Part shown: positions 1 through 6,517 of the stretch, piece after piece
How the letters are laid out: the number at the start of each line of letters is the position of its first letter
Position numbering within the stretch: position 1 is the first letter of the stretch
Made by a program: the position numbers and the translations under genes
IMG/VR virus record: IMGVR_UViG_2534682060_000010
From: a virus
Taxonomy: Duplodnaviria > Heunggongvirae > Uroviricota > Caudoviricetes
Length of the DNA stretch: 7,066 nt
Reading direction: 5' to 3' (one strand)
Notes under the pieces: generated by a model
Told to the model about the DNA's origin: nothing
The model's database searches: none
The model's input: the letters and a program-made list of their open reading frames with translations, nothing else

Positions 1-79
1 GTAGCAGACCTGCAATCAGCCCAACACCTCCACCAGCCCATACATCAGGTGACCCCAGTTCAGGAGGGAGATTTACCAT
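1..79 (-). CDS. Possible 5' end of a minus-strand gene running off the left edge (visible N-terminus MVNLPPELGSPDVWAGGGVGLIAGLL)
   Basis: ATG at 79-77 on the minus strand, AAGGA Shine-Dalgarno (complement of 86-90) 6 nt upstream, frame open to position 1. Gly-rich hydrophobic N-terminus. First 80 nt are 43/80 G+C by my count, visibly richer than the rest. Plus-strand frame 1 is also open over 1-141, so the strand call is uncertain. Confidence 0.25.
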   Translation of the reverse strand, partial: MVNLPPELGSPDVWAGGGVGLIAGLL

Positions 80-262: not shown

Positions 263-292
263 ATTATATCACAGATGTTAATAAAATGTTAA
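263..292 (-). promoter_or_regulatory. Sigma70-like promoter on the minus strand, firing leftward
   Basis: On the minus strand: -35 TTAACA (complement of 287-292), 18-nt spacer, extended -10 TGaTATAAT (complement of 263-271). Back-to-back with the plus-strand promoter at 299. Confidence 0.45.
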
Positions 293-378: not shown

Positions 379-936
379 ATGAGAGACGCAGAATTTAGAG
401 CGATGCTTCAGGCATCGAGACAACGTAACAGATACAACTCCTACAGCTACACAGACACCCCCACCAGCTACGAATTACCCAAGCTCACCCAAAAAGAACG
501 CAAAGGCATTGACGAAGTAATTCGGGCAATTACACCGAGGAACCGTTACATGCCAACACGCAAAACAACAAAGAACAGCATCAGGAATTATCTGGCTAGC
601 TTTGACAGCTACGCGCAACTACCGAGCAAGCTTGATGATATTTTTATTGGATTTTGCAGAAGCGAGGGTCACCAGAAATACAATCAGAAGGTTTTTTATT
701 TACTGCGAAGTCTTGATGAAATTAACTCAGCCACCGTGACAAATCATCTTCAGCGTCAAGCAACCAGACTTAGCCATGAATTACCAAGCGATAAATATTG
801 CGCTTTGCTTGCTGTAATGTGCGCAAAGTTAATTGGTGTTGTTGAGCATCATATTGCCGCTGGAAATATTGAGACAATGGAAAACGAGCAACCAGATTTC
901 GAGTTTGACCCGTATTTAGTTACAGAGGAATTTTAA
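379..936 (+). CDS. Hypothetical protein, 185 aa, basic N-terminal region
   Basis: Long ORF in AT-rich DNA; GAGGG 364-368 upstream of ATG 379; in-frame TGA immediately upstream; stop TAA abuts the next start. No motif recognised. Confidence 0.8.
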   Translation: MRDAEFRAMLQASRQRNRYNSYSYTDTPTSYELPKLTQKERKGIDEVIRAITPRNRYMPTRKTTKNSIRNYLASFDSYAQLPSKLDDIFIGFCRSEGHQKYNQKVFYLLRSLDEINSATVTNHLQRQATRLSHELPSDKYCALLAVMCAKLIGVVEHHIAAGNIETMENEQPDFEFDPYLVTEEF

Positions 937-1215
937 ATGAAGAAACACACTTTGACCCGTATTTCAGAGGAAGCTTTTAACGAGCTTACCAGAATTAAAC
1001 GAGCTACTAACTTGCCTCATCAAACTGTTATGCAGCTTGCAATCTCTAAAGTGGTCACTGAGTCGGATTTACTTAGATATCCAGTCTCTAAAGGCCGCAA
1101 ACACATCCGAATTACTCAGGACGCTTTAGATACTTTGAAGGGACTAAACAACTTTAAAATTGATATTGCCCGTCTAATGAGTATCAAAATTCACAAATTA
1201 GCGATGGAGGTTTAA
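937..1215 (+). CDS. Putative ribbon-helix-helix DNA-binding protein with two RHH-like repeats, 92 aa
   Basis: Starts directly after the previous stop (TAA 934-936, ATG 937). Residues ~5-38 (TLTRISEEAFNELTRIKRATNLPHQTVMQLAISKV) and ~56-88 (HIRITQDALDTLKGLNNFKIDIARLMSIKIHKL) each follow a beta-strand/helix/helix pattern typical of Arc/CopG/MetJ-type folds. Assignment is by pattern only. Confidence 0.75.
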   Translation: MKKHTLTRISEEAFNELTRIKRATNLPHQTVMQLAISKVVTESDLLRYPVSKGRKHIRITQDALDTLKGLNNFKIDIARLMSIKIHKLAMEV

Positions 1216-1415
1216 TGCTATGCGTTACCTTTGAATACCACACGGATAAAATGATTCGCTACATCTCCGACCTCCTGATTGAAGGAAACGGATTCGGTGA
1301 CATCCATAACTCAAAAGATATCTTCATTCACGCCACCAGCCCAAGCGAAACATTAAAAACAGCAGTTACAACGGAATGGTTTGAACGAAATAAAGTAGAA
1401 TTAGGCTATTGGTAG
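1215..1415 (+). CDS. Hypothetical protein, 66 aa
   Basis: TAATG overlap with the upstream gene (stop 1213-1215, start 1215-1217); GGAGG 1206-1210. No motif recognised. Confidence 0.6.
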   Translation: MLCVTFEYHTDKMIRYISDLLIEGNGFGDIHNSKDIFIHATSPSETLKTAVTTEWFERNKVELGYW

Positions 1416-1451
1416 TCCGAGACTTTAAGAGAAATTAGAAAAACAGCTTCT

Positions 1452-1571
1452 CAGACGCTCTCAATCGCATTCTAACGCAAAAAACTATCTTATTTTAGGG
1501 TGGGAATACCACTGTACAGGCTACCCCTGAAAAAGACTATTTAGCTCGTTACAGAGCGATTGAGGAGGTCT
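1452..1571. repeat. Structured repeat, copy B: left arm 1452-1482, unique 56-nt core 1483-1538 (contains palindrome CTGTACAG), right arm 1539-1571
   Basis: Same arms, order and orientation as copy A; core unrelated in sequence and length. Lies between the 66-aa gene stop and the 107-aa gene ribosome-binding site. Confidence 0.8.
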
Positions 1572-1593
1572 GGTAAAAAGGAGATTTTAGGAA

Positions 1594-1917
1594 ATGAACA
1601 ACTTCCCATTACAAATTTTCGTTGATAACGACGCCGCTCTGATGATTCAGGCTTTCACTGATGCAGGTGTGGCAATTGATTTTGACAGGCTGTTAAAGCT
1701 AGTTGCTGAGAACTCAGAAGTAATTGAAGATTTTATTCAGGGAATTGAAACTGGTGAACCACGTTTTATGTTTCCCGTTACCGACTCAAACATGAAAAGG
1801 CTTGTTATCGAAGAAACGAATAAATACAGCATTAGCCCTGAAAAATATCTCAAGGCGGCTATAGTAATTTTGTATAGCGACAGTATTTTGGTGACGGATT
1901 CGAAGGTGGTGCATTAA
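1594..1917 (+). CDS. Hypothetical acidic protein, 107 aa
   Basis: AAAAAGGAG 1575-1583 precedes ATG 1594. By my count 17 Asp+Glu against 9 Lys+Arg. No motif recognised. Confidence 0.75.
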   Translation: MNNFPLQIFVDNDAALMIQAFTDAGVAIDFDRLLKLVAENSEVIEDFIQGIETGEPRFMFPVTDSNMKRLVIEETNKYSISPEKYLKAAIVILYSDSILVTDSKVVH

Positions 1918-1982
1918 TGGTATTGGTGATTATCTGTTTTGTATTGATTGGTATGATTGCAGGTGCATCTATTAAAGTATAA
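1917..1982 (+). CDS. Candidate micro-ORF encoding a 21-aa hydrophobic peptide (MVLVIICFVLIGMIAGASIKV), not in the supplied ORF track
   Basis: ATG overlaps the upstream stop (TAATG at 1915-1919); AAGGTGG 1902-1908 lies 8 nt upstream; peptide is almost entirely hydrophobic with one Lys near the C-terminus; stop TAA 1980-1982. Confidence 0.3.
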   Translation: MVLVIICFVLIGMIAGASIKV

Positions 1983-2006
1983 ATGTTACCAATCTGTTAA
2001 AAGCTG

Positions 2007-3539: not shown

Positions 3540-5588
3540 ATGAGCAAATTTACAGTTGATAGTTTTATTGTTGAGCTAGGCTTCAATGAAAACGTTATTA
3601 AGGGACTGCAAAGAGTTGAAAAGGCAGCTTTGCAGTCAGCACAAAGAATTGAAAAGAACCTAAATAAAGGTTTCAGGATAAATACAAAACAGCTTGATAG
3701 TAATTTGACAAGTTCTTTAAAGTCAATGGAAGGAAAAATTAATAAGACCTTTGACCGTCTGGAAGCTAGAGCAAAAAATACTAAAGCTTTCCGTTTCACA
3801 AGTCAGGTTAATGATGCTATTAATCCTCCAAAACAATCAAAGCCAAGAAGAGTTACTAGTGACCGAGCTATTACAGCGGCTTATTCAGCGAATATGACCA
3901 AACTGAAAGGTCTTAACCCAATTGTCGAGAAATACATTAAGAGTCAGTTTTACGCATTAAGTAGTAAAGCTGGTCAGATGGATAACACCAAGTTTAATGA
4001 AGCCCTTGCTAAACTAAATTCAAGTGTACGAGAAGCAATCACTAAAGCCAGAGGTCATACATCCACCAGCATTAATAGTGACAAAGCAGCTAGTTCTCTT
4101 GATAGTCTGTCTTCAGCAGCATTTAGAGCAGCAGGTGCATTTATCAGCTTTCAGGCTGTACTATCCGCTTATCAGCGAGTACTGGAAGTTGGTTTACAGC
4201 GTACATCATCGGAAAGAAGTATTGATTTCGTATTCGGTGACCAAAGTACACAGGTTAAAAAGTTCATTCAGGATTTAACTCAAGTCACGGGTATGGACAC
4301 GACCGAAACACAAGCTCAGTTTGCCTCATTCGGTGCATCTGCAAAGAATACGATGGGTCTTGAAGGCTCAGAGGAATTATTTAAAAACTTAACTGGATAT
4401 GCCCGTCTAATGGGGCGTTCAGATGAGCAGATTCAAAGAGCATTAACCGCAGTATCGCAGATGGCTTCTAAGGGGCAGGTGATGTCTGAGGAGTTGAAGG
4501 GGCAATTATCTGAAGCTTTACCGGGTGCTACTCAGGCATTTGCAAAGGCTTTAGGTCTGACTGAAAAACAGCTTTTCGATAAGATGAAAAATGGTGATGT
4601 TAAAGCCTCTGATGCACTCCCTAAGTTTGCTAAAGAACTTGGTGCACAGATTAATTCAAGAGGTGGCTGGAAAGCTATTCAGGACTCTACGCAGACAATG
4701 TTAGGGAACTTAAAGAATACCTGGAATAACTCATTAACGGATATTTTCAAAGGTTCTGAAAATGGTCTGCAAGATTTTACACGAAGCTTAACAACGCTTT
4801 TAAATAGTTTAGATGGAAGTGGTAAAACATTAGGTGAAAGTCTTGGTGGCTTGATGAGTGATATGTCATATGGTATCGATAACCTGACTTATATTAGTTA
4901 CAGGGTGAGAGCGTTCTTTGATGAGGTGACATTAGCTTATCGTGGTTTAACCGATGAACAAAAGAAAGTTGTTGATGCTTTAGGTTCTGGCTTGATTAAT
5001 AGTTTAAAAGTCTTGGCTGGTGTTATTGCTGTAAATAAAGTTGTTGGTGTAACTAGAAGTATTTACGGGCTTATGACTGCTATCACAAGATTAGGTCAGG
5101 TCGCTGATACTACAGCAGATAACGTAAATAAAAAGAACGGGAAACCATCAAGGTTTAATCTTGGGAATATGCTATTAACTGGTAGTGCAATCTATGCAGG
5201 TTATGAGAGATTAGCTTCTACGCCTGAACGAATGGAAGCACAAGCTAAATTACCAGAGCTAGCTAAAGAGTCTGGACTTAAACCCGCTTTCACTATGGAT
5301 GATGTTAAAGGGTGGTTTAATAGTGCTGCCATGAATCTTGCTAACTTCCAGCATCCAGAATTAAACAACATTAAGCAAGATTCAGCATTAACGAGTGCAG
5401 ATATCCAAAGCCTGAGAGATGAAATCTCCGCTTTGAGTAAACGTATTCAGGAGCCTGTGAAAGTTTCACTTGGTGGTGAAGTTGCCATTAAACCAGATGA
5501 AACCAGCTTTATGACCTTTAGCGGTAATATCTACGACCAATACGCAGAAGCTACGCTATTAAGTTCATCATTCCCAGAAGATGATTGA
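3540..5588 (+). CDS. Phage tail tape-measure-like protein, 682 aa
   Basis: GAGGTG 3524-3529 upstream of ATG 3540. Internal segment KGQVMSEELKGQLSEALPGATQAFAKALGLTEKQLFDKMKNGDVKASDALPKFAKELG fits, from memory, the conserved tape-measure domain pattern. Long helical low-complexity N-terminal half and a hydrophobic segment LINSLKVLAGVIAVNKVVGV. Confidence is high that this is a gene, moderate for the product. Confidence 0.7.
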   Translation: MSKFTVDSFIVELGFNENVIKGLQRVEKAALQSAQRIEKNLNKGFRINTKQLDSNLTSSLKSMEGKINKTFDRLEARAKNTKAFRFTSQVNDAINPPKQSKPRRVTSDRAITAAYSANMTKLKGLNPIVEKYIKSQFYALSSKAGQMDNTKFNEALAKLNSSVREAITKARGHTSTSINSDKAASSLDSLSSAAFRAAGAFISFQAVLSAYQRVLEVGLQRTSSERSIDFVFGDQSTQVKKFIQDLTQVTGMDTTETQAQFASFGASAKNTMGLEGSEELFKNLTGYARLMGRSDEQIQRALTAVSQMASKGQVMSEELKGQLSEALPGATQAFAKALGLTEKQLFDKMKNGDVKASDALPKFAKELGAQINSRGGWKAIQDSTQTMLGNLKNTWNNSLTDIFKGSENGLQDFTRSLTTLLNSLDGSGKTLGESLGGLMSDMSYGIDNLTYISYRVRAFFDEVTLAYRGLTDEQKKVVDALGSGLINSLKVLAGVIAVNKVVGVTRSIYGLMTAITRLGQVADTTADNVNKKNGKPSRFNLGNMLLTGSAIYAGYERLASTPERMEAQAKLPELAKESGLKPAFTMDDVKGWFNSAAMNLANFQHPELNNIKQDSALTSADIQSLRDEISALSKRIQEPVKVSLGGEVAIKPDETSFMTFSGNIYDQYAEATLLSSSFPEDD

Positions 5589-5746: not shown

Positions 5747-6517
5747 ATGATTTACACTAATCAGCTTCGTTACAGTGGCAAAGATGGTGTTTACTTCCAT
5801 CTACAAGGCCAACCAGATAATTTCTTGTCACTATCAGCTACTGAGAACATGGAATTTGATAGCCCTATGATGGTTACCACTCAAAATATGCAATCAGGGC
5901 AGGCTGTCACAGATAATGTAATGCGTTCACCCAGAACAATTACTATTAGTGGTGTCGTTGTAGTTGGCTATGAAGGAAGCTTATTATTGACTCGTCAAGG
6001 GCAATTAGTAGAAAACTTCATTGATACTCTGGAAAGCTGGAGAGACCAGAAACAGATTATTTCGGTCATCTGTAAAGATGGTATCAAAATTGACGATTCC
6101 ATTATTACAAACTTTAAAGCCTCTAAAGATGTTGGAATTTCTAATGGCCTAAGAATCCAGCTAACTTTTCAGGAAATTAACTTTAAAGCTATCGTAGGGC
6201 AAACTGATATTTCATCTGCAACTGGAAAGACCGCTACCACGAATGATGGCGGTGCTACCAGTAAAAAGAACACCGGAAACACTACAACGAGCCTTGGAAG
6301 CCCTATGCTGACCTGTAAAGAGCTTTTTAGCTATTCGGCAAGTGAGTTATCAGATGAAGCGCTAAAAGCCCGTGTAACGTGCTCTAAGAGCGTTAGCGTT
6401 AAAAATGGTGAGAGCACCTTCTCAGATGCCGCTAATGAGCAAGCTTCAAAGGTGCTTAAGCCGGGTAATGCTCTGCGAAAGTACTCTGTGAACCCTAACA
6501 AGAAGGGCACTTATTGA
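5747..6517 (+). CDS. Hypothetical protein, ~256 aa; possibly a tail component by position
   Basis: AAAGGAG 5733-5739 sits 7 nt upstream of ATG 5747; the track's TTG start at 5726 lies upstream of the Shine-Dalgarno and is less likely. Placement right after a tape-measure gene suggests a distal tail protein, but I recognise no motif. Confidence 0.8.

Follow-up and report, generated by a model that had tools for sequence, protein, structure and literature searches.

A 7,066-nucleotide stretch of DNA, recorded in IMG/VR as a virus of the class Caudoviricetes (IMGVR_UViG_2534682060_000010; here called the window), contains at positions 379-1415 three directly adjoining genes for proteins of 185, 92 and 66 amino acids (aa). 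We propose, with a probability of roughly 55%, that this trio opens the leading operon of an island that resembles a satellite of the Vibrio cholerae PLE type and forms the first three of its cistrons, and that the 92-aa product, a predicted tandem ribbon-helix-helix (RHH) protein, regulates promoters of the island via TGTTAA sites. The first-pass annotation, made from the letters alone, had offered the trio as a candidate regulatory, toxin-antitoxin or defence module. The regulatory role is favoured here because TGTTAA sites are found around the promoters in the variants of this locus and because the 92-aa protein has the predicted tandem RHH fold, whereas the two other options are not supported.

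The AlphaFold2 model of the 92-aa protein, calculated from an alignment of 23 sequences, reaches a predicted local distance difference test (pLDDT) value of 91 and follows the pattern strand-helix-helix, short helix, strand-helix-helix. Foldseek searches against the PDB and against viral models are concordant and give TraY, DndE and AvtR as the best fold matches. In the model, the two repeats have their strands paired into a DNA-reading sheet, as is characteristic of the single-chain tandem subtype of the RHH (MetJ/Arc/CopG) superfamily, and they take up all 92 residues, with no toxin-binding or other extra tail. The tandem RHH assumed in the first pass is thus supported by structure prediction and fold searches, and the product is best described as a predicted single-chain tandem RHH protein, that is, a pseudo-dimer with a DNA-binding fold. 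Within the β-strands, H4-S10, H56, R58 and I59 are invariant among 23 homologues, and T7, K55 and I57 are identical in at least 90% of them. Sequence profiles gave only noise-level matches of this family to the PDB profiles and nothing significant in Pfam, PHROGs, PADLOC or NCBIfam. One match to a designed 'Bagel' repeat in the PDB profile searches turned out to be an artefact, namely the sum of eight 2-bit stretches.

The operon is headed by the sigma-70-type promoter P1 (299-327, plus strand; TTGACA-17-TAGTAT with a TG extension). It is kept in 10 of 10 aligned variants, and the first pass was right in crediting the trio with a promoter of its own. Back to back with P1 lies a leftward promoter-like site (263-292, minus strand; TTAACA-18-TATAAT), the sequence of which is also conserved and which would drive a small open reading frame (ORF) for a hydrophobic protein of 62 aa. 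Another promoter, P2 (2007-2035, plus strand; TTGACA-17-CATAAT), stands in front of a structured leader and the tail-gene block. In the 20-kb locus there are four copies of the bipartite motif TGTTAA-N5-TGTTAA, the half-sites of which are spaced by 11 bp, compared with 0.34 expected occurrences. The candidate operator O1 (276-292, plus strand; TGTTAAtaaaaTGTTAA) covers -58 to -42 of P1; all 11 variants have it at this position, and only the spacer bases vary. O2 (340-356) is an inverted copy, reading TGTTAttattcTGTTAA on the minus strand, at approximately +6 to +22 of the P1 transcript, and matches the motif perfectly in six of the 11 variants. O3 (1984-2000, plus strand; TGTTACcaatcTGTTAA) is located immediately upstream of P2, and the fourth site lies in an ORF-poor stretch of the island. 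All three candidate operators keep their positions throughout the 11 variants, except that O3 was not detected in variant L021. The TGTTAA half-sites are conserved across these variants and the bases of the spacer differ, a pattern commonly seen where a protein binds. We count it in favour of the proposed regulation that the strand residues of the 92-aa protein show a parallel pattern, being invariant just as the half-sites are.

According to this proposal, host RNA polymerase would transcribe the operon from P1, and the tandem RHH protein would bind as an asymmetric pseudo-dimer to the direct-repeat sites O1, O2 and O3. Judging from TraY, omega and AvtR, asymmetric direct-repeat sites are indeed what one would expect for an asymmetric pseudo-dimer. 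O1 would overlap the divergent leftward promoter, O2 would lie just past the start of P1 and O3 would abut P2; by occupying them, the 92-aa protein might limit the expression of its own operon and couple it both to leftward transcription and to the tail genes behind P2. The 185-aa protein and the product of the third gene might be its partners in sensing of a helper phage, in replication or in phage interference.

Several points weigh against this proposal. The pairing of the RHH protein with the TGTTAA sites is a proposal from sequence patterns, and two of the motif's own occurrences served to define it. The conservation of O1 is partly explained otherwise, because its second half-site coincides with the -35 element of the leftward promoter. 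The closest folds, TraY and DndE, belong to DNA-processing accessory proteins and not to plain repressors. The role of the 185-aa protein is a guess, since its structure model failed (pLDDT 47). Moreover, no gene for replication, packaging or excision control was identified in the island and its helper dependence is putative, and the term 'satellite' therefore rests on analogy. The likeness to PLE was likewise judged from gene content and the published description.

The fold-level kinship to TraY gives rise to a different explanation, in which the trio is an accessory module for DNA processing. An RHH protein like TraY or VirC2 would bind and bend a specific site of the island and recruit an enzyme for replication initiation, packaging or recombinase-mediated excision (in the last case as a directionality factor). 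It would have the 185-aa protein, possibly an initiator, as a partner, and the sites at the promoters would be secondary. Just upstream of the operon, 1.8 kb of ORF-poor DNA containing 48-nt direct repeats could hold an origin, and in an island with no recognisable replication or packaging gene some of the orphan proteins must supply or recruit these functions. The invariant acidic tail of the 185-aa protein with its C-terminal Phe also recalls the tails of SSB and T7 gp2.5, a resemblance that is suggestive at most. However, neither a TGTTAA pair nor any other shared motif was found at the ends of the island, and the conserved TGTTAA sites are located at promoters. By sequence, the 92-aa protein belongs neither to the TraY nor to the DndE family, and TraY regulates promoters, too, so that the fold cannot tell the two roles apart. 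We therefore regard an accessory function in DNA processing as unlikely and prefer the regulation of promoters via the TGTTAA sites.

Three coupled genes with an exchangeable third position

The trio consists of three real genes that are translationally coupled, under purifying selection and preceded by a promoter of their own. The gene for the 185-aa protein (379-936, plus strand, ATG start in the program-made ORF listing), a core gene of the island family, ends with a TAA at 934-936 that abuts the ATG at 937 of the RHH gene (937-1215, plus strand). The TAA of the latter (1213-1215) shares its last A with the ATG (1215-1217) of the gene for the 66-aa protein (1215-1415, plus strand), forming a TAATG overlap. 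The gapless arrangement described in the first pass is thus borne out by both the ORF listing and the sequence itself. Shine-Dalgarno-like sites precede all three genes (GAGGG at 363-367, GAGGAA at 924-929 and GGAGG at 1205-1209, respectively). Homologues of each of the three proteins are numerous and differ mostly by conservative substitutions. That these are real genes follows from the median ratios of nonsynonymous to synonymous substitution rates (dN/dS) in homologous loci, which are 0.19, 0.16 and 0.17 for the 185-, 92- and 66-aa genes (32-48 pairs; codon alignments of 8-11 distinct loci).

However, the operon does not end at 1415, as the description as a three-gene operon would imply. 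No terminator is predicted between the gene for the 66-aa protein and the cistron that follows in this transcription unit, which encodes an acidic protein of 107 aa (1594-1917, plus strand; dN/dS 0.21). This gene in turn overlaps, again by a TAATG read from the sequence, with an ORF for a hydrophobic peptide of 21 aa (1917-1982, plus strand). Such a coupled hydrophobic ORF follows the 107-aa gene in nine of nine variants checked; it encodes 21 aa in two of them (the window and L021) and 25 aa in the other seven. The coupled unit accordingly extends past 1415, and the leading operon has the order P1, 185-aa gene, 92-aa gene, third gene (slot 3), hairpin, 107-aa gene and 21-aa ORF. An exact 14-nt direct repeat, TTTGACCCGTATTT, is present at the end of the 185-aa gene (904-917) and at the start of the 92-aa gene (951-964). 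Its copies are 47 nt apart and encode FDPY in the former and LTRI in the latter, and the repeat may be due to chance.

The first-pass annotation had suggested looking at the conservation of the trio's neighbourhood. This examination gave a divided answer: the 185-92 order is constant in 11 variants, whereas slot 3 is exchanged. Most islands have a protein of 66 or 71 aa in this position, and L016, L017 and L021 have an unrelated protein of 119-128 aa, which ends in a resolvase-like helix-turn-helix and is start-stop coupled to the RHH gene. In addition, many islands possess a gene for a 95-aa HNH_3 endonuclease between the third gene and the hairpin (L012 11444-11731, L009 10491-10778, also L014 and L029). 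In these cases the third gene encodes 71 aa and is overlapped by the HNH_3 gene, which looks like a free-standing homing endonuclease polymorphism; no relative of this endonuclease was found in the phage collection. Since slot 3 is exchanged, the HNH gene is inserted and the operon runs on into the 107-aa gene and the 21-aa ORF, the trio is no closed unit. What stays constant among the compared loci is the pairing of the 185- and 92-aa genes together with the gene order at large, rather than the set of three genes.

These observations bear directly on the toxin-antitoxin pair considered in the first pass, in which the RHH protein would be the antitoxin of a type II or three-component system, the 66-aa protein the toxin and the 185-aa protein the third component. 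An RHH gene that is followed by a small, overlapping gene is indeed the layout of known RHH antitoxin/toxin pairs. The 66-aa protein, however, has no match to a toxin family in any library searched, and the RHH repeats occupy the entire 92-aa chain, so that no C-terminal toxin-binding segment is present. No promoter is found directly before the RHH gene, which is translationally coupled behind the 185-aa gene, and the 185-aa protein contains neither a P-loop nor a nuclease motif. In L016, L017 and L021, the 66-aa gene is replaced by the gene for the unrelated protein and the RHH protein is kept at 62-65% identity, and homologues are confined to this island family. Toxin family, fixed pairing of the genes, architecture of the antitoxin and position of the promoter thus all speak against a type II system, and a toxin-antitoxin function of the trio appears highly improbable. 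Truncated RHH genes in two assemblies (P0088 and P0090) were considered as a test of this function as well, but they are uninformative, as every gene in these assemblies is fragmented.

The exchangeable third position might also be explained by phage interference. In this case at least one protein of the trio, most likely that in slot 3, would act on the helper phage in the way of Rta, CapR or NixI of PLE, and the RHH protein would be a regulator only. Two unrelated alleles together with an HNH insertion polymorphism are typical of arms-race loci, and the island family is mosaic, as illustrated by L022, where the 185-aa protein is 61% but the 92-aa protein 90% identical. PLE, moreover, possesses several small orphan anti-phage effectors (PMC12987554). 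On the other hand, none of the proteins has a match in PADLOC, Pfam or PHROGs, no phage target is known, and the dN/dS values of 0.16-0.19 are ordinary and give no sign of diversifying selection. In PADLOC-DB, the 185-, 92-, 66- and 107-aa proteins have no match even at E ≤ 1. We consider such effectors within the trio improbable. A stand-alone defence module is not supported, and it is the island as a whole that may interfere with a phage. Regulation of the island's promoters by the RHH protein remains our preferred explanation.

The first-pass annotation had also stated that the 185- and 66-aa proteins resemble no toxin family recognisable by eye. This agrees with our searches, in which both proteins had no family match in Pfam, NCBIfam, PADLOC, PHROGs and the PDB profiles. 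Of the profile searches and structure predictions it had recommended, structure prediction gave a fold for the 92-aa protein, but no family was obtained for the other two and no usable model of the 185-aa protein, which was predicted as all-helical at an unreliable pLDDT of 47. At its C-terminus, the 185-aa protein carries a conserved acidic tail with EEF as the last residues. An exhaustive search among 1.8 billion cluster representatives yielded only 23 clusters of relatives. The distant ones come from Pantoea (26-31% identity, 179-317 aa), and it was ruled out with hhalign that their longer C-termini are fused copies of the 92- or 66-aa proteins. At one of these Pantoea loci no RHH or tail genes were found nearby, and a genome scan with P0265, representing the distant Pantoea relatives, gave no match. 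A 185-like gene in the Aeromonas phage 85AhydR10PP is a weak match and has only unannotated neighbours. The 66-aa protein is represented by 36 clusters, all of them enterobacterial, with no relatives detectable elsewhere.

In strain JNEC-KY203 (L011), the 185-aa gene contains an expanded in-frame 9-bp unit, CAACTCCTA, with about 26 extra copies (L011 10432-10690, corresponding approximately to 430-450 of the window). The expansion adds a long Asn-Ser-Tyr repeat to the low-confidence linker behind the N-terminal helix. The annotation pipeline lists this gene as a partial pseudogene, which is a mislabel, since the supposed disruption is the in-frame repeat expansion.

By eye, the 107-aa protein has two strand-helix-helix-like stretches, LQIFVDNDAALMIQAFTDAGVAIDFDRLLK and RFMFPVTDSNMKRLVIEETNKYSISPEKYLKAAIVILY, and may be a second tandem RHH protein of the operon. 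An hhalign comparison of the 107-aa with the 92-aa family was not significant, and a search of the 107-aa family against the PDB profiles gave noise only. The two small hydrophobic ORFs resemble each other in one segment. The leftward ORF for 62 aa (minus strand; window 1-79 with the start at 79, L004 8955-9143) and the 21-aa ORF share a 17-nt inverted repeat (8-24 and 1948-1964), which encodes a similar GLIAG/GMIAG segment in both. Their products could be membrane-active peptides; PLE uses a small membrane protein for lysis timing.

Hairpin elements on both sides of the trio

The first-pass annotation regarded the trio as bounded by two repeat copies. These copies exist, with repeat matches at 88-191 and 1447-1572. 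The full upstream element spans 88-195 and is located within the 5' leader of the small ORF that reads leftward, and the downstream one spans 1447-1576 (plus strand), where it stops just 5' of the ribosome-binding site of the 107-aa gene. They are hairpin elements of 105-130 nt, in which 16-nt inverted termini (AGACGCTCTCAATCGC / GCGATTGAAGAGGTCT) enclose a variable interior, the general pattern of the termini being AGACGCTCTCAATCGC ... GCGATTGArGAGGTCT. The RNA of the downstream copy folds with -42.1 kcal/mol (z = -4.8 relative to shuffled controls).

As boundaries of a cassette, however, the hairpins do not qualify, because the upstream copy is missing in five of ten variants, as a clean presence/absence indel, and the downstream copy stands beyond the HNH gene wherever this gene is inserted. 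The hairpins do not delimit a mobile three-gene cassette, and the upstream copy is dispensable. The canonical downstream hairpin is present together with the 66/71-aa allele of slot 3 and is missing with the alternative allele.

The element occurs in 404 E. coli genomes, with a median of one copy and exclusively in carriers of the island. A genome-wide miniature inverted-repeat transposable element was rejected on these grounds: with about one copy per carrier genome, the hairpin is island-specific and no general repeat. A role as res-like sites for the small serine recombinase of the island is not supported, since the presence of the copies does not track the recombinase gene (L011 has both hairpin copies but no resolvase, and in L009 and L013 a resolvase gene accompanies a single copy). 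In L013 the long closing stem of the downstream copy is retained via different arms, and in L020, after a two-base change, that of the upstream copy survives on the minus strand only, through G-U pairs. This retention of the stem suggests that the hairpin elements are under selection for structure, probably at the RNA level.

The island and its tail genes

The window corresponds to L004 9065-16130 and has an exact-sequence match in E. coli chromosomes between yciI and tonB. In comparison to K-12, the island is an insertion of 11,594 bp that is flanked by 13-bp direct repeats, CAATGACCCTTGA (L004 5616-17235), which contain the start codon of tonB. At one end of the island, a large serine recombinase of 506 aa with Resolvase, Recombinase and Zn_ribbon_recom domains is encoded on the other strand, and it is by this type of enzyme that the island was inserted at the tonB start codon. 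The insertion displaces the native promoter region of tonB by 11.6 kb, so that island DNA now lies directly 5' of tonB, and a stub of four codons (ATG ACC CTT GAA TAA) was left over at the left junction.

The left part of the island contains variable cargo (a 221-aa protein and either a small serine recombinase or a methyltransferase) and the 1.8-kb ORF-poor stretch. The small leftward hydrophobic ORF and the genes for the 185-, 92-, 66-, 107-, 246- and 69-aa proteins come next, and the right part is made up of the genes for the tape measure protein (682 aa), the Dit-like baseplate protein (256 aa) and the recombinase (506 aa). A common order of 185, 92, slot 3, (HNH), 107, 246, 69, tape measure, Dit-like and recombinase was found by tblastn in 11 variants, with mosaic identities. 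The trio is thus only one section of a larger conserved gene order in a mobile island with phage tail genes, which was not visible to the first pass.

There are at least four integration sites among the variants, namely tonB, wrbA, inside yecE and next to dinB, and the islands at sites other than tonB have other recombinases. Related DNA was detected in 478 of 5,426 complete E. coli genomes (approximately 9%), always in the chromosome, and also in Salmonella, Citrobacter and Shigella; the genes of the operon are all annotated as 'hypothetical'. We found no description of this island in the literature, nor of an enterobacterial counterpart of PLE. It is not the SpLE2 of O157:H7, an identification that was considered and proved wrong, as SpLE2 is a CP4-44-like element. 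In the O157:H7 locus L029, where the island is located in yecE, an IS1203/IS629 insertion interrupts the tape measure gene (L029 11027-14418), which shows that decay has set in in some island copies. A search for tRNAs was negative, and the two matches obtained with Rfam were below threshold and due to chance.

The ORF-poor stretch (L004 7680-9440) separates the small recombinase gene from the operon. No convincing ORF is present in it, but it has GC-rich patches, 48-nt direct repeats at 8693-8740 and 8788-8835 with a short third copy at 6506, and one TGTTAA-type site. It has no match in Rfam and could represent either an iteron-containing origin or a long non-coding RNA. A second non-coding region follows P2, which is closely similar to P1, with TTGTATATATA after both promoters. 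About 300 nt of strongly structured RNA (2007-2345; -86.6 kcal/mol, z = -6.0) include two terminator-like hairpins (2211-2231 with a T-run, and approximately 2312-2340) ahead of the 246-aa gene, and blocks of this RNA are conserved across the variants. Either a small RNA or a leader that acts by attenuation is conceivable; PLE carries a conserved regulatory small RNA, SviR.

The tail genes connect the island to Felixounavirus. The tape measure gene (3540-5588; TMP_3 domain) and the Dit-like baseplate gene (5747-6517; Dit_like domain) stand in the same order as in Felixounavirus, where the gene order is chaperone, tape measure and Dit-like, and no chaperone homologue was identified in the island. 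The Dit-like gene has 85-90% nucleotide identity to Felixounavirus over approximately 0.5 kb and 76% identity at the protein level. In contrast, the tape measure protein is only 29-32% identical to its best phage relatives, which are also those of Felixounavirus, and with 682 aa it falls 65 residues short of its counterpart in phage HK3 (747 aa). This difference suggests that the baseplate gene was recently exchanged with phages and that the tape measure gene is long diverged or deliberately different. The first 2,450 nt of the window have no nucleotide match in the phage collection, and apart from the weak 185-aa match in the Aeromonas phage, no relatives are present there for the operon or for other parts of the island outside the tail genes.

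Comparison with known systems

Among proteins with a tandem RHH fold, TraY, an accessory protein of the F-plasmid relaxosome, and VirC2 are kin of the 92-aa protein at the level of the fold, with a sequence identity of 4-14%. The 92-aa protein has no match to the Pfam TraY family, however, and neither a relaxase nor an oriT nor conjugation genes were found nearby. DndE, which is involved in DNA phosphorothioation, is a similar case: the 92-aa protein scores 17.4 bits against an NCBIfam cut-off of 71.85, and whereas DndE systems have a dndABCDE cluster, no dnd genes are present in the island. AvtR and related tandem-RHH regulators come from archaeal viruses and have no detectable sequence relationship to the 92-aa protein, and the operator layout given here is a putative one. 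In comparison to ParD-ParE, MazE-MazF, TacA-TacT and omega-epsilon-zeta, with which the trio shares the RHH gene followed by a small overlapping gene, the RHH protein is a tandem in a single chain and has no toxin-binding tail. The partner gene can be exchanged and its product falls into no toxin family, and the module is part of a longer operon. We found nothing in the literature on RHH proteins in satellites. Even in a conservative reading, the operon would provide an example from a bacterial mobile element of a single-chain tandem RHH protein with a clear candidate operator layout, and it adds two conserved orphan protein families.

For the island as a whole, the closest known analogue is the PLE satellite of V. 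cholerae, which parasitises a lytic myovirus (PMC12987554). PLE encodes a large serine recombinase as well as a chaperone, a tape measure protein and baseplate-hub proteins of its own, from which chimeric tails are formed; between PLE11 and the phage ICP1, the tape measure proteins share 20% and the baseplate-hub proteins 41% identity (PMC12987554). Both elements are discrete chromosomal islands of 10-20 kb that integrate by a large serine recombinase, and both have a tape measure and a baseplate-type protein akin to those of a lytic myovirus (32% and 76% identity to Felixounavirus in the present case). They also have in common many small orphan genes in tight operons, extended regions without coding sequence and a region of structured non-coding RNA. 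The partial tail module of the island (TMP_3 and Dit_like) is thus related to that of a lytic phage, with no chaperone identified. The two differ in that the island is found in Enterobacteriaceae and its putative helper is Felixounavirus, and no equivalents of RepA, TcaP or NixI of PLE were recognised.

Going further, one could tentatively regard the operon as the control module of an undescribed satellite family of Enterobacteriaceae (E. coli, Salmonella, Citrobacter, Shigella and E. albertii) that would parasitise lytic Felix O1-like phages by means of chimeric tails, with the RHH protein and its TGTTAA sites together with the two orphan proteins serving as a helper-sensing switch. We would put somewhat less than even trust in this extended proposal. 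Felix O1-like phages are widely used in biocontrol and phage therapy directed at Salmonella and E. coli. If the island is a satellite of such phages, the leading operon would be the obvious place for a switch that detects the phage. In that case it would also be the first case in enterobacteria of the chimeric tail strategy known from PLE; according to the 2026 study on PLE, no other satellites had been reported to encode a tape measure protein (PMC12987554).

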